The notes: generated by a model from the letters alone, not told the origin. A stretch of 27,100 bases of DNA from an uncultured archaeon (GCA_964508365.1 CAZDTP010000054.1:1-27100), one strand, 5' to 3'; counted from the first letter of the stretch, positions 3,962-22,474 are shown. Translations and numbers: made by a program.

Positions 3962-5827
3962 ATGAACGATAAGAAAAATAATCTAAGTATTGACTCATTA
4001 TTCGAGATTTTTCTAAATTCTATTGAAACTGGAAATCATAAGAAAACAACGGAGTGTTTGAGTTCAATTCCTAGTATTGAATCAAATTTTCTAAGAGTAT
4101 ATCATAATAGGAAAAAAGAAGGCGCATTTTATACTCGTGATTCAATAGCTTATTTTATAATTACCCATGGTTTAATTTTATTCTTCAACAACTATTTAAA
4201 AAAGTACAAGATTGATAATATCGACGATATTTACAAGTTGAATAAAGAGGGAAAAGACAAAATCAAAAAAAAACTGGTGAATTTTACTATTCTTGACCCT
4301 GCTTGTGGGACGGGAGTTTTTCTTCGTAGTGCAATTAAAATTATCGTGGGATTATTAAGAACTCTTGAACCAGACTCTGACTTTGAAGAAATCAAATTTC
4401 ATGTATATAAGAATCTTTTTGGTTCTGAAATCAACCAAAATGCGAGAAAACTTTGCATTTTAAAATTATTTAAATTATTTAATGATAGTAACAATTCTTT
4501 TGATTCAAAGCTCTTATCAATTCTAAATTCTAATATCACACTTGAAGATAGTTTAGTGAGAAAAAGAGATTTTAAATTCGATTTAATTATAGGAAATCCT
4601 CCTTATGGAAACATACTCGATAATACTCAGAAAGAGAGATTAAAATCTGAAAATATTTTTTATAATGATATTTACTGTGCTTTCATATTAAAATCTCTGA
4701 GTTGGACAACTGGTATTATCGGGTATCTGGTTCCTAAGAGTTTCCTACTCAGGCAAGGATATGTTAAATTTAGAGAGAATTTGTTTTCCAGAGCTAATTT
4801 ACTCAAAATATACGATATCGGCCCAAATATATTTGCTAAAGCTACAAATGAAGTACAAATTTTATTGTATGAAAATAAAAGTGAGATAGTTAAAGATTTA
4901 GAAGTATTTCAGTATCCTAATACCGAAGTTGTTAGATACACCAGTCAAGAGGTTGATACTTTAAGAATTTGTTTTAATAAAATTTGCCCTTTAAGTGTTC
5001 ATGCTAAAAAAATTTACGCATATGTTTATGATCTAAACTGTCCATACTGTAATTCTAAAACTTTTGCTTTAAATCGCATCAGAATTAAACCAGATAAAAA
5101 AATATTGAATCTTATAAATAAAATTGAAAAATCAGGAGATGTAAATTATCTTAATATCAATCGATTCCCCAACATGATTAGGGGAGAAGAAGATAAAGGG
5201 TTAAAACATGTTAGAACTCTCATTGAACAAAATACAAGTAATAATTGCTATTTCATAAAGGCAAAAGGAGATTTTAATTATTACTTTTTTAATAAAGAAA
5301 AATCGTTTGACATCGAAAAAGCAGATCCAAGAATTTTAAAGGGCACTAATTTCGAATTTTATACTAATCCAAAGCTATTAATTAAGCACAATAGTATTTT
5401 TCCTCAATCAGTTTTCAGTAAAGAAGAGGTATGTTTTACATCTTCAATCTATTCAATAATTAACGATGATCATGTAGAGTTAAAGTACATCAACGCAATT
5501 ATAAATTCTTCTCTTATGCAATATTATTGCCTTTACGGAATAAACAATCAACAAAACACGACGATAAATCTAAACCAATATATGATCCGGCACTTACCAA
5601 TTAAGAACGCTTCCCCAGATGAAAAAAATATTTTAAACGAAAAGGTTCAGGATGTAATTAACGCTCTCCTAGATTCTAATGGAAAACTAAACGGAGAAAT
5701 AAATAATAAATTAAGACAGATTGAAGGTAAAATTTTTGAACTATATGAAATAGACGGGAATGAACGAGAAATGATAGTTTCAGACATCAAAAATCGAATC
5801 GATTTCTATAAGACGGTTTATCAATAA
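3962..5827 (+). CDS. N6-adenine DNA methyltransferase (Eco57I/TaqI-like, gamma class) with C-terminal target-recognition region
   Basis: Motif I ILDPACGTGVFL precedes motif IV IIGNPPY. N-terminal GAFYT motif, YLVPKSFL, and TaqI_C-like KLLIKH...F / LKYINAIINSSLM...Y. Confidence 0.9.
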   Translation: MNDKKNNLSIDSLFEIFLNSIETGNHKKTTECLSSIPSIESNFLRVYHNRKKEGAFYTRDSIAYFIITHGLILFFNNYLKKYKIDNIDDIYKLNKEGKDKIKKKLVNFTILDPACGTGVFLRSAIKIIVGLLRTLEPDSDFEEIKFHVYKNLFGSEINQNARKLCILKLFKLFNDSNNSFDSKLLSILNSNITLEDSLVRKRDFKFDLIIGNPPYGNILDNTQKERLKSENIFYNDIYCAFILKSLSWTTGIIGYLVPKSFLLRQGYVKFRENLFSRANLLKIYDIGPNIFAKATNEVQILLYENKSEIVKDLEVFQYPNTEVVRYTSQEVDTLRICFNKICPLSVHAKKIYAYVYDLNCPYCNSKTFALNRIRIKPDKKILNLINKIEKSGDVNYLNINRFPNMIRGEEDKGLKHVRTLIEQNTSNNCYFIKAKGDFNYYFFNKEKSFDIEKADPRILKGTNFEFYTNPKLLIKHNSIFPQSVFSKEEVCFTSSIYSIINDDHVELKYINAIINSSLMQYYCLYGINNQQNTTINLNQYMIRHLPIKNASPDEKNILNEKVQDVINALLDSNGKLNGEINNKLRQIEGKIFELYEIDGNEREMIVSDIKNRIDFYKTVYQ

Positions 5828-14160: not shown

Positions 14161-14362
14161 AAATGTAACTTTCTAAATTTATTTTTCCATGTAATTTACT
14201 TTCCATACACTCTTCTTACATTTAAATAACACCGAACAAACTGTAATAATAATTTGTTAGACCTTTTTTTATATTAAATTTGCAAATAAAAATGAAACAG
14301 GATGAATTTCAAAAAGTTAGAAATGCTACCATTCGAGAAGGTTAAAGAATTATCTTTAAATT

Positions 14363-15079
14363 TTAACCTAAAACTATCCGGCAAGCAACATCCATTACTT
14401 TTGCTATATCCGTCATATACCTTGAAAATTCCTGATCCGAGCAGTCTGTAATCCAACCAAGGAGTTTATTCTCGTATTTAGCCCGTAATCCATCCATTTT
14501 TTCGCTAAATATTTCCAAATCTACGAAAGATATGTTATTTTCCTTGAATTTAATAAAATTGTCTTTAATAATAGAATTGCTTTGCTGCCAACGTTCTTCG
14601 CATATATATTCAAACTTGTCGTGTTCTGCTTTGAATTTGGCGGCGTTAAGAAGTTTCTCTAATAATCTAATCCAAGGAGACACACCACTATTTTCAGACT
14701 CGTTATTAGATGTATCACTTTTTGAGTCTAAAATAAATTTAGACATTGTTTTTAAAGAATGGTACGGTGTTGCCCAATCGGTAATGTAATGAAAAACCCA
14801 TCCGAGCCAACGAGACCAAGACTGATCACCTGAATTATAAGCTTCATAGGTTTTATTAATGTGTTGGATCGACAATTCCTTCGCTCTATCAGTATGACCA
14901 GCAAACCATCCGATTGAAGTCATTACCGCTTCGAGCATACCCTTACGCAATCCCTCTCTTTCTATTTCGTCCGGTTCTACTGATTTAGACACGAGTATTT
15001 GCAAGTTTTCGGAATCTATAGCATGAGATCCGTATAATCCTACTAATCGAGCTAACCCTTTATGCGTGATCTCTCTCAA
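14363..15079 (-). CDS. Zinc-dependent phospholipase C / S1-P1 nuclease fold protein
   Basis: N-terminal ITH, HYITDWATPYH (H-x3-D-x5-H) and EHDKFE (H-x3-E) match the tri-zinc ligand pattern. TTG start; no signal peptide seen. Confidence 0.75.
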   Translation of the reverse strand: MREITHKGLARLVGLYGSHAIDSENLQILVSKSVEPDEIEREGLRKGMLEAVMTSIGWFAGHTDRAKELSIQHINKTYEAYNSGDQSWSRWLGWVFHYITDWATPYHSLKTMSKFILDSKSDTSNNESENSGVSPWIRLLEKLLNAAKFKAEHDKFEYICEERWQQSNSIIKDNFIKFKENNISFVDLEIFSEKMDGLRAKYENKLLGWITDCSDQEFSRYMTDIAKVMDVACRIVLG

Positions 15080-15254
15080 TTTACATCTTTTTTATGTATT
15101 TTTATTACCCTGAATTTAATTCTAGATTTTAGAATTTGGTTAATTAAAATAACATGATAATCTTTATTAAATTGTCTTTAGCAATTCTTAGAAGAAATAT
15201 TAACGTTAAACTTTTCTATTTTCTCGTATTAAGAAAAATATAATCATCAAATAA

Positions 15255-15719
15255 TTATGGAAAAATAAACAGAAGCTTTGGATAGACCTTTCAGGGTGTA
15301 AACCGCTTATCCAAAAGATGCTTATTCCCGTAATATTTCTCAACTTACTAAGATTTACCGACTATTATGGACCTCCGGAGAATTATTGGCATTTAAACGG
15401 CGTCGTAATTATAAACGAGGCGGAAAAATTGTTTGCGTTAGTGCCTTGGGAACGATATAAAGCTCGTTATAACCAGAGAAGACGACATTGGGAACTCTTA
15501 AAATACCAAAAATTATTTTTAACCAAAGAACAGATGGTTGAGGCTTACGGAGAACCATCCATCCTCTTTAAAAGCCAATTAGAGACGTATTATCACGATA
15601 TTTTGGCTGATGAGTTCCGTTTTCGAAACATAACGCTCTTTACTGGAACAAGCGATGAGAAGACTGTCCAAAATTTTATCACTGACTTTTCTCAAGTAAG
15701 ACTTGTTCAAAATGAATAA
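15255..15719 (+). pseudogene. C-terminal fragment of a HerA/VirB4/FtsK-like ATPase
   Basis: The frame extends upstream of the track ATG (LWKNKQKLWIDLSGCKPLIQKMLIPVIFLNLL) and contains a Walker-B-like VVIINEAEKLF and DEFRFRNITLFTGT. No Walker A; stop at 15252. Confidence 0.5.
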
Positions 15720-15802: not shown

Positions 15803-15997
15803 GATATCGTCGAGAAAGAACACGTGTTCTTTTCGTATCTCCCAGATCAAAACTTGGATGAACTCTTAGTAGCATGCGTAAGTTCTCCAAAACCTAATAA
15901 TTCTATTCAAACGAAGGATGAAAATCCCATCGTAAAATCTCCTCAAGTTGAACTCTGGAGGCATTACTTCCCCGAAGGACCTCCCGTAGTAAACTGA
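15803..15997 (+). pseudogene. Start-less remnant of the C-terminus of a TFB-like paralogue
   Basis: NLDELLVACVSSPKPNNSIQTKDENPIVKSPQVELWRHYFPEGPPVVN* is 30/48 identical (hand count) to the C-terminus of 20721-21929. Confidence 0.88.
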
Positions 15998-16008
15998 AGG
16001 TTCAACTA

Positions 16009-16078
16009 AAACCAAGACTCCTACATTATCGTCCATCCTTTTGGTTAGAAGTATTTTTCACCGCTGCAATGTACAGGT
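16009..16078 (+). other. Conserved non-coding motif downstream of the TFB-like tail, copy A (candidate structured RNA or element end)
   Basis: AAACCAAGACTCCTAC (16009-16024) and CATCCTTTTGGTT (16034-16046) are identical to, and spaced as in, copy B. Confidence 0.65.
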
Positions 16079-16181
16079 TTACATTTTTAATATGAAGTGA
16101 TATTATTAATTCGATCTGTCCTCTTATTTAAATAGAAGAGACTATATATCCATTTTTAAATAAAGGACAATATATAAAGAA

Positions 16182-17189
16182 ATGAGCAAGCAAATTACAA
16201 AAAGACAACATGTTGTATCTCAGTTTTATTTGAAATCTTTTGCCGTTCAAACCAAACCTGGTCACTTCAAAATATTTTGTTATTTTAAACAACAAAAAAA
16301 TAAAATAGAAAGGCTTGAAGTGAAAGATGTTGCTGTTAAGAAATTTTTCTACGACGATAATAAACTCCCTCAACCAATTGAGAGTTTTTTATCGTTTACA
16401 GAAAAAGATTTATCCAGAACTTACTATAAAATTGTAAAAGAAAAATCTATAAATAACTTAAATGAGAAGGAAAGAAAATATCTAGTTTACTTTACTTATT
16501 TCCAATATGTCCGAACAGAATATACAAGAACTAAAGCAGAACAGATATTAAAGGATATTATAGAAAAAGAGAAATCTAATTACTTGAAAGATCATACAAT
16601 TGAAGAATGGAATGAATTTAAAGAGTTCGGCACGACTAAGCATCCAATCAGACTTCAAAAATTATTAATTGTTGTTGATGATAATTACTTAGAATATTGG
16701 AGGGATAAAGTAAACTTATCTACATTAAATATTATAAAAACAATTCTGAAACTTAAAACTAAGATATTGAATACTTTTTTTAATCTAAATCAAATTCTAT
16801 TAGAGATTAAGCAGAGCAATATGGAATTTTATACAAGCGATCATCCAGTTTTATTTTATAGCAAAAATACTCGAAAAGATGATGAAGGAAATGCTTTTCT
16901 AAATATTCACGATTCCCAAACACAGATATATTATCCCCTTTCTCCCAAATTATGCTTAAATTTCTATAATAGCAAAATCTTTAGCGATTATAGACAAAAA
17001 TATCCTTACATGAAAAAGGAATTATATAAATCTGATGTAAACGAGGTGAATCTTATTAATAAGTTAGTAACTCACGAAGCTTACCGAATGATTTTTTCTA
17101 GATCAGGGAGATTTAATATTGCGCAGAGTTATTTAGATCAGAATCCAAAGTTCAGAGAGATAAATCTAAGGAGATTCTATAAAACATAA
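16182..17189 (+). CDS. DUF4238 family protein
   Basis: N-terminal QHVVSQFYLKSF, FFYD...IE, FQYVRT, FYTSDHPV and YYPLSPKLCL motifs. Confidence 0.85.
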   Translation: MSKQITKRQHVVSQFYLKSFAVQTKPGHFKIFCYFKQQKNKIERLEVKDVAVKKFFYDDNKLPQPIESFLSFTEKDLSRTYYKIVKEKSINNLNEKERKYLVYFTYFQYVRTEYTRTKAEQILKDIIEKEKSNYLKDHTIEEWNEFKEFGTTKHPIRLQKLLIVVDDNYLEYWRDKVNLSTLNIIKTILKLKTKILNTFFNLNQILLEIKQSNMEFYTSDHPVLFYSKNTRKDDEGNAFLNIHDSQTQIYYPLSPKLCLNFYNSKIFSDYRQKYPYMKKELYKSDVNEVNLINKLVTHEAYRMIFSRSGRFNIAQSYLDQNPKFREINLRRFYKT

Positions 17190-17433
17190 AGTCTGTAATT
17201 CCACGATTGTATCTATTAATTTAAATAAAATCAAATTTTTCAGGATGTGATAGATTATAAAATTTAATTTTACTTACCACTTTTGAGGGTATTTTAATCT
17301 TTTTTATTATATTTCTTTTTCTTATTATTTAATCCTTGGGAAAAGAAGTAAAAATACTCAAAGAAATTATAAGTTTTATTAACTAAGAGAGTTTAAAATT
17401 TCTATGATAATAGGGGTGGAAATTCATCAATTA

Positions 17434-18375
17434 TTAATCATCTAGATTATATTCAAATATACGGTTCCTTTCTGGATCTTTAAGTTCTGGGAAATTACCT
17501 AAACATGATTTTACAAATTGAAAATCGTTTGTTCTTGCAAATACAGTACGATGTGCCATAGCAATAATCTGAGTATTTATCCAATTTAATTCAGCTTCTT
17601 TCACGATTCTTTCTGTTTTTACTTTTCTATATTCCGATCTATTTTTATCATATAATATTAAACAAAGTTTAGGATTGAGGGGGAAAAAAATCTCGACACC
17701 TTCGGCTCTATAGGAAGCAGTACCATAACCAACAATCTCGTCACCGCTATAGATTGGATTGAAAACAACTACAGGATGATCTGAGGTATAAAATTCTTTA
17801 GATAAAGTACTTTTAGTTAGGTTCCACTCTAAATCTGAGATATATTCAATCATTTCACTTGAAGATTGAACATTTCCATCTTCATCTTGAAAGACATTAA
17901 ACATTATATTGAATTGTGCCATCTGCCCTCGACTTTCAAGCAACCATTCTTGGTATTTAGGGGGTAAGTTATCAAATTTAGGAAAATCCTTAACTTTTTC
18001 AAATTTTTTATAGACTTCCTTAACTATTTGTACATATCGCTCCCTGGTAGATCTGGTTCGTTCATTTTGAATAAACACATACTCACACATACAATATCTT
18101 TCTGAAGCACTTAGATTTTTAATAGATTCATTTTTAATGATTTTATGGTAGACTTTTGAATGCTTCTTTTCTTTTTGGGAGAATAATTTTTCAATTTTAG
18201 GGGGAGCTCCTACATCATAAAAATGATTCTCCATACAAACCTGACCCACACTTCCTACAAACTCCTTTCCAGTTTCTTTATTGAAACATTTGACTGTAAA
18301 ACCACTTTTTTTCTTTAATCCAAATTTTCTTAAATAAAACTGAGGTACATAATGCTGTTGTATATACTCTTTCAT
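17434..18375 (-). CDS. DUF4238 family protein
   Basis: QHYVPQFYLRKF, HFYD...IEK, IQNERT, FYTSDHPV and FFPLNPKLCL motifs. Confidence 0.88.
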   Translation of the reverse strand: MKEYIQQHYVPQFYLRKFGLKKKSGFTVKCFNKETGKEFVGSVGQVCMENHFYDVGAPPKIEKLFSQKEKKHSKVYHKIIKNESIKNLSASERYCMCEYVFIQNERTRSTRERYVQIVKEVYKKFEKVKDFPKFDNLPPKYQEWLLESRGQMAQFNIMFNVFQDEDGNVQSSSEMIEYISDLEWNLTKSTLSKEFYTSDHPVVVFNPIYSGDEIVGYGTASYRAEGVEIFFPLNPKLCLILYDKNRSEYRKVKTERIVKEAELNWINTQIIAMAHRTVFARTNDFQFVKSCLGNFPELKDPERNRIFEYNLDD

Positions 18376-18457
18376 GATCTTACATTTCTACTTCTTTTTT
18401 AAATAAACTCAAAAATAAAAGATTATTAATTGTTATTGAGATTTTATGAAATTATAA

Positions 18458-20287
18458 TTATTTATCTAAGACATATTTCTCCATATATTTACAACAAAAT
18501 TCAAAAAACTTTTCAAAAAATTCGGAAGAAAGTTTTTTTCCTTTGATTAATTCACAAATCTCTTTTAATTGGATTAATTCAGGATTCTTTTTTTCGTTGT
18601 AAATAGAATCGTCATCTGTCAGAAAATAATACAATATAATTATTAGATTAAATGAAACCCATGACTGTCCTCTATAAGTGTTGTTTAAATGAGGTTGAAT
18701 GTCTCTATTTTTCAATAACTCTCTCTTTTGAGTTGTGCTTATCACTTTTTCTAATTTAGGAAATATTACCATATCAATAAAAAGATGTAAGATGATCGAG
18801 ACATGTTTAGCTACTAAGAATTGTTGTTCTTTTGGAAGGATTGAATTGTAAATTAATTCCTGATTAGGTGAATTTCTTAGATTTATTAATTTTTTGAACA
18901 ACTCTTTGCTAATGGAGTTATTTATTTCAAGGAATACTAAATATTCCAGATATAAAAAAAAAAAATTATAATAATACAAAAGATTTTGAAAGAGATTTTT
19001 TTCTTCAATCCACATATACAATCCTTCAATAAATAACTCAGGCGAATTTGTTATAAATAGGATTCCTGAAAAATCTCGAAATGGAAATCTACATATAAAT
19101 CCATTCTCGGGATTAAATTCAAATTCTTGAGGAATCCATAAAGGTTTATCTTGTTGAATGGATATTATTTGTTTATAGTACAATTTAACCCTTCTATTTT
19201 CACTACTTCTTTCAGAAAGTCTAAAGTTTTTTGCAGCGATTAAATTTCTAAATTTATCAACCTCATAGAGTCTTTCAAGAGGTAATATTATTATAGGATT
19301 TTCTAATAAATCTTGATAATCTGGAAAGATTTGTTTCATGATATCTAAATATTCTTTTGGTATTGAATAAAATTCGCGATAATACTCTTCATTCCAAAAA
19401 TCTGAAGCGAATTCTCTGATTGAATTCTTAATATCTTTGTATCTAGCTAAAAAAGTTTCAGCTTTGTTCAATTCATTCATATGTTCATAAAAAACATATA
19501 ATTTTTTATATAGTTCTGCACGTAAATCCTTATTTTCTAGTTGATTAGCAATATAAAGTGCATTACTGTATTCTTTTTTAATTGATCTATTATCATTCTC
19601 TTTGAATAATTTCTCACATTGTAAAATATGGTGATTAATGATTTTTTCTAGAATGGAATCTATTAATTTAGAAATTTCGATTAAAATTGCTGTAATATTA
19701 ACTATAATATTTAAAGCATCTAAGCGAAAAAATTCTCGTTTCATCTTATGATAACTTTCTTCGGCATGTAAATGAATAAAATCATACCATTCTTTTTGAT
19801 CTTTCTTTATATTTGCATGAGCATAATGTCCAAAGATAAAACAATCAAATATCTCTTCGTTAATCTTAAATTCTTTTGTTTTATTTCCTCTAGTTAATTT
19901 AAGATTAACCATTGGTGGTGATTGTAAAAATTGATTAATTACTTTTCTAAAATTCTTGAAATTTTTCACTTCATCTTGAAAAAATGGTTCTAAAGCTGGA
20001 AGAACTTCATCTCCAAGATATTGAAGGGAAGATCTTTCATTTCCTATTATAAAAAAACGAAAATCCAAAATAAAGGCTTTTATTGACTCTTCAGGAGGTT
20101 CACTAATACCAATTCTCCCTACCCAACCATTCTGAACTTTCTTAGCTTCTGCTTTGAGCTGTAATTGAATATTTTCTTTAAAATAAAATTTGAAAAAATT
20201 TGAATTTTCTAATTCTTTTATTTTTTGGTGGTAATGAATTATAGCGTCAATATGCTTTGACTTAATTTTTAAATTCTTAATGATCAT
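18458..20287 (-). CDS. Hypothetical 609-aa protein: N-terminal helical domain (FRFF..NE..S / FGHYAHAN), central TPR-like helices, unknown C-terminus
   Basis: Long clean, very AT-rich ORF. TPR-like EYSNALYIANQLENKDLRAELYKKLYVFYEHMNELNKAETFL. Domain calls are tentative. Confidence 0.75.
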   Translation of the reverse strand: MIIKNLKIKSKHIDAIIHYHQKIKELENSNFFKFYFKENIQLQLKAEAKKVQNGWVGRIGISEPPEESIKAFILDFRFFIIGNERSSLQYLGDEVLPALEPFFQDEVKNFKNFRKVINQFLQSPPMVNLKLTRGNKTKEFKINEEIFDCFIFGHYAHANIKKDQKEWYDFIHLHAEESYHKMKREFFRLDALNIIVNITAILIEISKLIDSILEKIINHHILQCEKLFKENDNRSIKKEYSNALYIANQLENKDLRAELYKKLYVFYEHMNELNKAETFLARYKDIKNSIREFASDFWNEEYYREFYSIPKEYLDIMKQIFPDYQDLLENPIIILPLERLYEVDKFRNLIAAKNFRLSERSSENRRVKLYYKQIISIQQDKPLWIPQEFEFNPENGFICRFPFRDFSGILFITNSPELFIEGLYMWIEEKNLFQNLLYYYNFFFLYLEYLVFLEINNSISKELFKKLINLRNSPNQELIYNSILPKEQQFLVAKHVSIILHLFIDMVIFPKLEKVISTTQKRELLKNRDIQPHLNNTYRGQSWVSFNLIIILYYFLTDDDSIYNEKKNPELIQLKEICELIKGKKLSSEFFEKFFEFCCKYMEKYVLDK

Positions 20288-20632
20288 TTCCTAAAAGCAA
20301 TAAAATACTACTATCTTGATTCTATTTTTATATACAATTATGTCTCTAAATAATGTAAAATATAAAAATTTTTTAAGTTTAGCATTAATTTGCAGACATA
20401 TTTATTAGATTATTAATAGTCTATTAAATTATTAATTTTTTTCAGTTTTATTAGTATTAAAATTTACAGGTATATTTATAAGTCCCGACAAAACTCTATT
20501 TAAGTGTAATTGATATCATAAATTAATTTCCAGATATGTCCATATTGAGTATACTTAAATTAACAGTAACTAAAAACAATCTAAAAAGTATAAGAAAGCT
20601 TGTTACTTAGATGAAATAGATGCAAAAAAGAC

Positions 20633-20709
20633 GACTCCTACCTTACCTGCGCGAAATTGCAATTCTCTTTCAACCAAAAGGATGTAATGTAGGGTAGGAG
20701 TCTTGGTTT
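20633..20709 (-). other. Conserved non-coding motif downstream of the TFB-like gene, copy B, with a 14-bp inverted repeat followed by a T-run
   Basis: Arms 20633-20646 and 20689-20702 match at 13/14 positions. On the minus strand the stem is followed by GTCTTTTTT. Shares 16-nt and 13-nt identical blocks with copy A. Confidence 0.7.
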
Positions 20710-20720
20710 ACGCTAAATTT

Positions 20721-21929
20721 TCAGTTCGCTAATGGGGGTCCTACGGGCGAGTAATACTTCCAAAGCTCAACCTGAGGAGAAGTTACGATGGGATTTTCGC
20801 GCTTCGGTTGAGAAGAGTTATCCAGTCTTGGAGAGCTTATGGACACCACTACTAGCTCGTTTAAGTTTCTAACGAAAAAATAGTATTCAAGATCGTTGTT
20901 GGCGTTAAACACTGGCGACGCAGATCCCAGCGTAATTTGTATCAGTTTTTTCTCCTCAAGTCTTTCTTTGTTCTCAAAAACACCCAATTTAGCCATTATT
21001 TTTTTCAGGAGACCAGCAGATTTGACTAAACTTCTAAAGCCAGCTACTCGATACCGGTCAAATACTCTTTTTTCAACTTGTTTTTGGATAGCTGACATTT
21101 CTATTCCCAAGATATCGCACAGATTAGAAACCCGACAGGTCGCGTTTCGAGTACAGAGTAAGGTAATCGAACACACCAATCCTACTATGATATCATCCTT
21201 AGTGTTCTTGATGTTCTCGTAAAATGTGTTCAGAATTTTCTTAGATTGATAGAAAAACGGCATCCCTAGGTTAAAGTGTTCTGTCATCGCTAAAATCCTG
21301 CGGACCACGTATTCTTTGCGATTTCTCTCCTGATATTGCGGCCATATACGGATAATTGAAAGCTTAAACGAGTTAAAATCCTTTTTTGAGATGTGTGCAA
21401 CGTCCAACAGCTTTCTCTCGTGAATAGGTTTGCTATTTTCTTTGTAAAAGGCGTAAATAACGCTCGGAACCAGCATTGTTGGGTTTCTATACTTGGTTCC
21501 CGTAGCGATTTGAGAACGTATGAATTTGAACCGCTCCAATAATGGATATATGTCTTTGTTTGGGAGCTTTAAAGCGGTTATAATGCGCTTAATTTCGGCT
21601 CTAGCCGCGTTTACTACTATTTCCTCGTACGAACGGCGTGCATCTAGCTTATTCAAGGCTTCAATCCTAACCGAATTACTTACGCCAAACCTTTCTTTCT
21701 TGGTTCCTATTTGAGTCTTATTCATAACAGCGTATTGCAGGATGTCTTTGTCGTACGGTCTATGGTATTCTAATTTTTGTAACTCCAAAACTATTCCACA
21801 ATTTTGGCACGAAAATCCTTCGTAAGTTTCTATAATGTCCATTGAACCGCACATATCGCATCGTTCCGAAGAATCTAACGTGGAACTTGCGTCTAACGAG
21901 CCAATTTTAACCAAATTGTAGCTTGCCAT
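20721..21929 (-). CDS. Divergent transcription factor B (TFIIB)-like protein with a C-terminal extension
   Basis: Zn ribbon CDMC...CQNCGIVL, TQIG...ER linker, two cyclin-like helical repeats, and an extra ~90-aa tail ending in GPPLAN. Confidence 0.82.
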   Translation of the reverse strand: MASYNLVKIGSLDASSTLDSSERCDMCGSMDIIETYEGFSCQNCGIVLELQKLEYHRPYDKDILQYAVMNKTQIGTKKERFGVSNSVRIEALNKLDARRSYEEIVVNAARAEIKRIITALKLPNKDIYPLLERFKFIRSQIATGTKYRNPTMLVPSVIYAFYKENSKPIHERKLLDVAHISKKDFNSFKLSIIRIWPQYQERNRKEYVVRRILAMTEHFNLGMPFFYQSKKILNTFYENIKNTKDDIIVGLVCSITLLCTRNATCRVSNLCDILGIEMSAIQKQVEKRVFDRYRVAGFRSLVKSAGLLKKIMAKLGVFENKERLEEKKLIQITLGSASPVFNANNDLEYYFFVRNLNELVVVSISSPRLDNSSQPKRENPIVTSPQVELWKYYSPVGPPLAN

Positions 21930-22474
21930 TTATTTTTACCTTACAATTCCAATATATTAAGTAAAGTATGGGCACCAGTTTGCTATTTGAATCTTGTGAC
22001 TCGAGTGTAAAATATCAGAAACGCAGGAGGCATGGGAGTTTACGATTAGATTTACGCCGATCACCTGCCCTATTTTTTGTTTCCTCTACAAAACTGTCTG
22101 AATGAGAATAAGACGGGAAACATAGAACGCGCATTTTTTGCGAAAAATCATAATTTTGCAATTCGATTAGGAAGTACGTTGCAAGTCAAATTAAGGAGAA
22201 GATACATACAACAATAACACGAAGATTTTAAGGAATTTGTAATAGAGATATCGCATTATAACTTATCTTTTTCTCTTTGGGCTGAAAATCTCGGAGTTCT
22301 CCTTAGTCTTCGACGGTAATTGAAAGATACGAAAACAAATTAACTTATAACTGGGAGTCATTGAGAATTAAACAATATAAACAGCTCTTAAAAAAATTTT
22401 TCTTTTAAAAAGAAACACTATCTGGTAAATGTAATTTGATGCTATGGTCGTGTTTTATTGTGAGAGAGAAAAAA

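Follow-up and report, generated by a model that had tools for sequence, protein, structure and literature searches.

Probable cassette turnover behind a mirror-symmetric island beside a divergent TFB-like gene in a Lokiarchaeial genome

Why should two ends of a transcription factor B (TFB)-like gene face each other across a few kilobases of an archaeal genome, each followed by the same non-coding motif and by a gene of the DUF4238 family? This question is raised by positions 15803-21929 of the stretch analysed here, the complete 27.1-kb contig C54 (27,100 nt; GCA_964508365.1, CAZDTP010000054.1:1-27100; hereafter the window) of an uncultured Lokiarchaeial archaeon (Promethearchaeota), whose genome comprises 4.07 Mb in 149 contigs with a mean GC content of 31.8% (sd 2.0% over 5-kb windows). 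An earlier, sequence-only reading had described a left arm with a TFB-like tail, a motif and a DUF4238 gene, facing a right arm with an intact TFB-like gene, the same motif, a 609-aa gene and a second DUF4238 gene, and every one of these elements was found in its place. The observation is thus confirmed; its interpretation was right only in part, and the notions of two working elements, of a unit of TFB and cargo and of linked mobility genes proved wrong or unsupported. We propose that the island probably arose when cassettes turned over in a defence-island-like hotspot beside a sporadically distributed TFB module, and that the left arm is a relic which hitch-hiked along.

The strain-variable segment and its cargo

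The proposal builds on the comparison with a sister strain, represented by three contigs (L005-L007), which is collinear with the window at 20622-22014 and again at 15255-15715. Between these two stretches the sister strain has 492 unrelated bases, compared with 4.9 kb in the window, and the segment 15716-20621 is therefore strain-specific, as had been anticipated with the idea of presence and absence between strains. Its right junction lies directly after the U-tract of the hairpin that follows the TFB-like gene. On the left, the junction cuts a 354-aa gene nine codons short of its end; this gene is intact in the sister strain and left in the window as a 133-aa remnant (open reading frame, ORF, 15318-15719, within the border region 15255-15719, plus strand). 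Up to this border the strains are nearly the same, with 98% DNA identity between 15255-15715 and L005:1886-2346 and 95% identity of the remnant protein over 133 aa. Comparison of the junction sequences revealed neither a repeat nor a target-site duplication at the outer junctions. Since the last 150 codons of the TFB-like gene and the motif are identical between the strains (synonymous divergence, pS, 0.00) and the adjoining DNA is unrelated, the change of the segment must have been recent. The GC content of the island (26.9%) and that of the TFB-like gene (40.3%) both differ from that of the genome, and such an atypical base composition agrees with a foreign origin.

The junction itself is fixed across lineages. 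In all lineages with an intact gene for which the downstream sequence was read, divergence sets in right after the U-tract and differs each time, and the break point is likewise at the U-tract in the relics L050 and L059, so that the idea of variable cargo at a fixed junction stands. The DNA upstream of the module is also variable between lineages.

The segment carries three genes, which were part of a Pfam screen covering ten ORFs of at least 130 aa between 14363 and 25731. Both DUF4238 genes, #1 at 16182-17189 (plus strand; PF14022, E 6e-37, 128 bits) and #2 at 17434-18375 (minus strand; E 9e-45, 153.6 bits), match the profile over its full length (positions 1-280 of 281) and above the 27-bit cut-off. 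The third, at 18458-20287 (minus strand), encodes a 609-aa ORFan with no recognisable domain and no Pfam or PADLOC match, for which a protein-atlas search returned only sub-threshold TPR-like hints. Orthologues of DUF4238 #1, 78-88% identical, occur on other Lokiarchaeial contigs in unrelated contexts, with neither the TFB-like gene nor the motif nearby; their neighbours include Nmad2, PRTase, a nucleotidyltransferase and a 1771-aa helicase-nuclease. The homology is gene-sized, as in the match to L132, which is confined to 16162-17200, i.e., the ORF plus 10-20 nt on each side. Similarly, the four homologues of the ORFan found among 5.8 billion proteins (26-45% identical) lie in unrelated contexts free of TFB and motif; the neighbours include a PemK toxin gene for one of them and a large helicase for another, and a large helicase with an MZB domain is among the defence-like neighbours seen across cassette contexts. 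The same genes thus occur elsewhere on their own, which argues against a unit of TFB and cargo.

AT-rich, TATA-like sequence, read by eye, lies upstream of DUF4238 #1 and of the 609-aa gene, and the cargo genes probably work on their own. In E. coli, one DUF4238 protein encoded by P2-like prophages (Rst_DUF4238) suffices for protection from T7 (Rousset et al., 2022, PMC9122126). The window proteins resemble it in being stand-alone and in consisting of the DUF4238 domain end to end; they differ in being archaeal and very distant and in lying side by side as two divergent copies, and any role as single-gene antiviral factors would be by analogy only. Behind the L050/L059 relic, PDC-M50A (a PADLOC candidate, E 5e-10) and a PD-(D/E)XK-HerA protein are encoded.

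The two arms that give the island its symmetry form an inverted repeat of 202 nt (15850-16051, plus strand, against 20667-20868, minus strand) with 74% complementarity (BLASTN E = 3e-31 within the 4.07-Mb genome), and BLASTN found no third copy in the host genome. The right arm consists of the last ~50 codons of the intact 402-aa ORF and ~100 nt of non-coding sequence after its stop codon. In the left arm, an open fragment of 57-61 codons is followed by a portion of the same non-coding stretch; it comprises a truncated TFB-like tail of the last ~55 codons (15812-15997, plus strand; E 4e-14 to residues 346-402) and a degenerate copy of the 3' stem-loop (16006-16095, plus strand). The tails have 31 of 54 residues in common (57%), with 70% DNA identity, a pS of 0.55 and a nonsynonymous divergence (pN) of 0.22. 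This bears out the 30 of 48 residues and the many synonymous differences reported by the sequence-only reading, which had concluded that two members of a family met tail to tail after diverging as working genes.

That conclusion is not supported. A pS of 0.55 between the arms points to descent from two gene lineages rather than to two genes at work in the host, and the left arm shares 83-84% of its DNA positions with the L050/L059 copies, compared with 74.6% for the resident gene. In its tail four otherwise invariant residues are changed, turning ELWKYYSPVGPP into ELWRHYFPEGPP. The ratio of nonsynonymous to synonymous changes (dN/dS) against L050 is 0.64, compared with 0.17-0.48 among the intact genes, and the left hairpin folds no better than shuffled sequence (z +0.66), scoring 35 bits with R1, a covariance model built from the hairpin motif. 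Judged by its sequence, the left arm is a foreign, L050/L059-like and decaying copy. An inverted segmental duplication was rejected as well: the tails agree at 57% of residues and 70% of DNA positions, the DUF4238 pair is only 27% identical (BLASTP) and the 609-aa gene has no partner, so that no block was duplicated.

Taken together, a module on the minus strand (~22400-20617), made up of a leader, a divergent TFB paralogue and a terminal stem-loop, abuts a strain-variable zone, in which about 0.5 kb, as seen in the sister strain, has been replaced by 4.9 kb containing the 609-aa ORFan, two unrelated DUF4238 genes and, at the far end, a scrap of a foreign module. DUF4238 #1 probably once stood behind the TFB module of a donor and moved together with that flank, the scrap being a passenger relic. 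The mirror symmetry would then be a by-product of cassette shuffling by recombination and would call for no designed palindrome, duplication or pair of active elements.

Such a history resembles that of defence islands and of the hotspots in P2 and P4 (Rousset et al., 2022, PMC9122126), where unrelated, partly antiviral gene-sized cassettes interchange at a fixed junction beside a conserved gene, close strains differ in presence or absence and the base composition is atypical. Differences are that the anchor belongs to an Asgard archaeon and is no prophage gene but a sporadic TFB module that ends in an RNA stem-loop, that no phage, satellite or integrase context was found and that the island itself contains the relic of another anchor.

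The TFB-like gene and the RNA element at its 3' end

The anchor of the variable zone, an intact gene at 20721-21929 (minus strand), encodes a 402-aa protein that PF00382 (TFIIB repeat) did not match even at E values up to 10 and that reached 15.3 bits (E 0.014) with the Zn-ribbon model PF08271, below its cut-off of 29; the roughly eight canonical TFBs of the host score 52-88 bits on the TFIIB repeat. When a profile of 36 family members was compared by hhalign with an alignment of seven canonical host TFBs, the match had a probability of 95.6% (E 1.2e-8), residues 19-282 corresponding to 4-289 and thereby spanning the ribbon, the linker and both cyclin folds. An AlphaFold model was of low confidence (predicted local distance difference test, pLDDT, 52), and its best Foldseek matches in PDB were TFIIB chains (E 4e-6). 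The profile-profile match and, weakly, the low-confidence model support the assignment as a predicted, highly divergent member of the TFB/TFIIB family. The label "TFB-like" hence finds backing in both comparisons, but not in Pfam above the cut-off.

Beyond this core, the protein has a C-terminal extension of ~120 aa ending in ELWKYYSPVGPPLAN, i.e., ELWKYYSPVGPP plus three residues. The wider family has ~310 members from Lokiarchaeota and Hermodarchaeota and falls into two groups. Members of the first, of ~424 aa, are near-universal in Lokiarchaeia, have the same C-terminal extension and are 55% identical to the 402-aa protein; the host copy lies on C51. The 402-aa group is rare, and its other members (65-92% identical) all come from metagenome contigs or metagenome-assembled genomes outside the species set of 185,579 genomes, in which the best relative of the 402-aa protein is 55% identical. 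At the DNA level, the 3' end of the gene together with the motif matched only relic fragments, in four of the 134 genomes surveyed besides the host (135 family genomes in total). Judged from these distributions, the 402-type module looks accessory and sporadic. The two other TFB-like paralogues of the host each adjoin a gene for a membrane protein of ~255 aa with an HExxH motif (M50-like; G000:C51:3644-4411 and G000:C48:25182-25940), whereas the 402-type gene lacks this linkage.

Asgard viruses and mobile elements encode TFB homologues as well (Medvedeva et al., bioRxiv 10.1101/2021.07.29.453957), and the window gene resembles these in encoding a TFIIB-family protein with a patchy distribution amid variable DNA. 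It differs from them in that its product has diverged too far for the TFIIB model of Pfam, is without a relative in IMG/VR and carries the ~120-aa C-terminal extension in common with the 424-aa Lokiarchaeial paralogue. A viral origin of the family or of the motif was discarded, as neither had a match in IMG/VR.

Across the whole gene, the window and the sister strain (L005:86-1294) are 94% identical in DNA. The pS between them amounts to 0.48 in codons 1-50, to 0.10-0.18 in codons 50-250 and to 0.00 from codon 250 through the hairpin; because this divergence changes stepwise along the gene, the gene is a recombination mosaic. Upstream, a non-coding leader (21930-22400, minus strand) with a TATA-like box near 22371-22378 is kept over ~430 nt in nine lineages, roughly at the conservation level of coding sequence. 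Leader, gene and hairpin make up a module of ~1.75 kb common to all lineages. The leader contains AGAATTGCAA, a 10-mer identical to one in the loop of the 3' hairpin, and from this sequence identity the two could represent a common binding site.

Every intact 402-type gene examined is followed, 18-29 nt past its stop codon, by the same element, which in the window occupies 20617-20712 (minus strand). Its stem of 14 bp, GACUCCUACCuuac / guaaGGUAGGAGUC (in the window GACUCCUACC.../...GGUAGGAGUC), encloses a loop, in the window CCAUCCUUUUGGUU..., with an invariant CCUUUUGGUU, and is followed by the U-tract. Intact hairpins fold 3-3.9 sd better than shuffled sequence (z -3 to -3.9; -3.0 for the window copy), and 10 of the 12 copies besides the left arm score 93-109 bits with R1 (109 bits in the window), the two most divergent ones reaching 62-63. 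Substitutions in the upper stem, C-G to U-G and U-A to U-G, keep the pairing in the sense orientation but not on the opposite strand. Although 97% of cells allow the stems to pair, 213 of 500 shuffles reach the observed covariation score, so the structure rests on conservation and folding energy rather than on covariation. A possible pseudoknot stem, AACCAA/UUGGUU, is pairable in 95% of cells and almost invariant, but visual inspection did not show it to be kept in the larger RNA family described below. The hairpin and its U-tract most likely form the 3' end of the TFB-like transcript. As for the suggestion that a conserved 3' motif marks the entire family, it applies to the 402-type genes but not to the widespread 424-aa paralogues, after which the motif is absent despite the same ...ELW..Y.P.GPP ending.

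Searches with R1 unexpectedly found elements of ~140 nt in other genera. These have a closing stem GACUCCUGCC/GGCAGGAGUC, i.e., GACUCCU(R)CC/GG(Y)AGGAGUC, an internal CUUUUGGU block, a CCUCCUCCCCC run and an invariant 21-nt block, CCUGGAUUUUUGUCUUUUGGU, which includes a near-perfect Sm-site-like AUUUUUG (GGAUUUUUGU). They form two hairpins with compensatory changes at eight base pairs, and their copies have a TATA-like box of their own upstream and a U-tract at the end. A second covariance model, R2, built from the ~140-nt elements alone and hence independent of the window copy, found this RNA in 126 of the 135 family genomes, among them 36 of 36 high-quality ones, with 1-18 copies each. Two host copies lie at G000:C7:12125-12265 (plus strand) and at about G000:C23:54174-54314 (plus strand), and the loci L104-L141 represent relatives; one copy is syntenic and adjoins a 569-aa "TTSICPECL" protein. 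Shorter classes of RNA (~107 and ~85 nt) have only the closing stem in common with it. The ~170 nt upstream of the dispersed copies had been considered as TFB tails, which was rejected, the sequence being a non-coding promoter or leader.

With R2, the window motif scored 29.8 bits (E 2e-7 in 77 kb), below the 89-165 bits of full-length members, which makes it a reduced relative rather than a typical member. From these sequence comparisons, the motif most plausibly represents a shortened relative of an undescribed RNA of wide occurrence, placed within the 3' untranslated region (UTR) of the TFB-like gene. Rfam 15 matched neither the motif nor the ~140-nt RNA, at the gathering threshold on the window and at E values up to 0.1 on 11 loci. 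In a pattern scan of metagenomes, seven of 32 matches were true copies of the motif, and most others belonged to an unrelated hairpin RNA family or arose by chance. An unrelated-looking hairpin RNA at L049, L052, L054, L056 and ~20 other Ga03079xx metagenome loci shares the 10-bp stem, AAGACUCCUACCUCUGCAGACC...CAGAGGUAGGAGUC, and has another hairpin downstream, promoter-like sequence upstream and no match in Rfam; the resemblance could reflect homology to the Lokiarchaeial RNA in a different lineage, or chance.

Weighing the alternatives

Several observations weigh against cassette turnover as a full account of the island. The starts of the truncated copies (left arm, L050, L059, G098 and G093) fall into a stretch of only ~75 nt, at codon ~340-365 of 402. 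G098 and L050/L059 have kept the tail and the hairpin, and G093 the leader, 15 codons, the tail and the hairpin. Three to five independent events clustered in this way are unlikely as random deletions, and "tail plus hairpin" would therefore be either selected or generated. Moreover, L087 (G098:C43:20116-20382) and L090 (G101:C105:4220-4279) hold complementary half-hairpins, both broken after UUUUGGU (±1 nt), and these matching breaks hint at a site-specific process. The dispersed ~140-nt RNA copies often lie at contig ends, and the G106 paralogues L137 (C10) and L139 (C9:340794) share flanks, one of them bearing a 2.3-kb insertion with a 765-aa ORF immediately 3' of the RNA, i.e., at the same position as the cargo in the window. 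In G106, too, a fragment of DUF4238 #1 adjoins a copy of the 5' leader of the module, in view of which the association of DUF4238 #1 with the module may be more than chance. A donor with the order TFB, motif and DUF4238 #1 was not found.

The same holds for the nature of the cargo. Most downstream genes in other lineages are unannotated, and the term "defence-like" therefore rests on few genes. In PADLOC-DB v2.0.0, searched at E values up to 10, there was no credible match for either DUF4238 protein, the presence of a DUF4238 model in this release being unconfirmed; the lone match for DUF4238 #1 was to an unrelated Cmr4 model (E 0.008). The tie of both proteins to the anti-T7 protein of E. coli consequently consists in Pfam family membership only. 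The defence cargo inferred by the sequence-only reading is represented by DUF4238, PDC-M50A and PD-(D/E)XK-HerA.

Several of these points could be accounted for by the scar of an integrative element, in which the stem-loop RNA and the 3' end of the gene served as attachment (att) site, the 4.9 kb stem from one or two elements and the left arm came in as the att copy carried by them. The junction lies exactly at the RNA 3' end in all lineages read, units of tail plus hairpin of similar length recur without the gene body, the half-motifs of G098 and G101 break at the same position, and the placement of the ~140-nt RNA copies, including the insertion in G106, would fit as well. In the same manner, elements that integrate at the 3' ends of tRNA or small-RNA genes leave variable DNA beginning exactly at the end of a structured RNA, with partial copies scattered. 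In the window, however, the copies are inverted rather than direct, diverged (only 74% identical) and, like the relics elsewhere, ragged over ~75 nt at their 5' ends, they include ~165 nt of protein-coding tail, and at the left junction an illegitimate break interrupts another gene, with no duplication. Linked integrase or ATPase genes had been predicted; no recombinase domain turned up in the ten screened ORFs, nor is one listed among the Pfam annotations precomputed for the contigs of the sister strain and of the orthologues. The lack of IMG/VR matches to gene family and motif also speaks against such an element. Of the hallmarks of a site-specific integrative element, neither a recombinase gene, among the screened ORFs, nor direct attL/attR repeats were found, and a tRNA or tmRNA as att site was rejected after ARAGORN had found none in the window. 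On balance we regard the scar as unlikely, though not far-fetched.

The half-motif in G098 is fused to a 5'-truncated fragment of a LAGLIDADG endonuclease. This junction appears random, which counts against an att site, and looks accidental. An intron with a homing endonuclease that split the motif was also considered and rejected, the LAGLIDADG piece being 5'-truncated and the 3' half-motif not lying downstream.

A broader and rather unlikely proposal combines two ideas, namely that the 3' end of the RNA with the GACUCC stem is a preferred, tRNA-gene-like site of recombination or integration for cassettes of defence and other accessory genes in Lokiarchaeia, and that "TFB tail plus hairpin" is a functional unit (a 3'-UTR-derived small RNA or a translation-coupled terminator) which was kept, and moved with the cargo, even after loss of the gene body.

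The second idea can also be taken by itself: the ...W.YY.P.GPP ending would stall ribosomes or signal in a way coupled to termination, 30 nt further on the stem-loop would serve as terminator or 3'-UTR-derived small RNA, and selection would have retained both. This could explain why just the tail and the hairpin are kept repeatedly, why the loop with its invariant CCUUUUGGUU is conserved beyond the needs of a terminator and why the G-U-compatible changes are confined to the sense strand, and the kinship with an independently transcribed RNA family would fit in. Nevertheless, we consider it improbable. The tail shows no excess synonymous constraint, its pS of 0.26-0.58 being equal to that of the rest of the gene, and extra constraint at the RNA level was rejected accordingly; in addition, hairpin-less 424-aa paralogues have the same peptide ending, the left copy in the window is decaying, and the hairpin lacks statistical covariation (213 of 500 shuffles, as above).

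Quite improbable, in our view, is the model put forward by the sequence-only reading, according to which a divergent TFB and its motif mark and transcribe a slot for defence cargo in each member of an Asgard element family, two members having met tail to tail. The variable cargo at a fixed junction, the defence-like genes after two "tail plus motif" units (DUF4238 #1 in the window, PDC-M50A in L050/L059) and the occurrence of TFB homologues in Asgard viruses and mobile elements (Medvedeva et al., bioRxiv 10.1101/2021.07.29.453957) are in line with it. But the left "element" consists of a degenerate tail and a degenerate hairpin without any TFB body, the same cargo genes are found elsewhere with neither TFB nor motif, most other cargo is unannotated and the 424-aa group with the same C-terminal signature lacks the motif. 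The TATA-like sequences seen by eye ahead of DUF4238 #1 and the 609-aa gene likewise speak against this model, in which the TFB would be a dedicated initiation factor for the cargo.

Finally, a programmed, shufflon-like DNA inversion that swaps the C-terminal tail of the TFB and the next gene is hardly credible: inverted repeats do flank the segment, the gene after each arm has the orientation of that arm and, as in the R64 shufflon or the G segment of phage Mu, an alternative 3' end, truncated and inverted, lies a few kilobases from the full-length gene, yet the arms are poorly matched at 74% identity, the alternative end is degenerate, having lost four invariant residues and the hairpin, no invertase or other recombinase was found among the ten screened ORFs and the sister strain lacks the entire segment.

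Surroundings and significance

Outside the island, the left part of the contig encodes a 621-aa type II/IIG-like DNA methyltransferase at 3962-5827 (plus strand; PADLOC MTase_II, E 3e-21), with otherwise housekeeping surroundings. In a PADLOC run on ten window proteins, the methyltransferase was the sole name returned, the Cmr4 match of DUF4238 #1 being judged not credible. Closer to the island, the region 14284-15217 includes a 238-aa ORF (14363-15079, minus strand) with weak similarity to Zn-dependent phospholipase C (E 0.011). Several other species of the genus have copies with 88-94% DNA identity to it, more than the 80-87% of the adjoining core genes; some genomes contain it more than once, and in G103 it lies 1.6 kb from another DUF4238 gene. 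By these sequence features, it looks like a recently transferred cassette.

The widespread, undescribed RNA with its Sm-site-like motif raises the question of Sm-protein-bound RNAs in Asgard archaea. If cassette turnover beside the TFB module is the correct explanation, the island would be a product of ordinary accessory-gene turnover, and Asgard archaea would build defence-island-like hotspots from gene-sized cassettes that are common across lineages at 78-88% identity.

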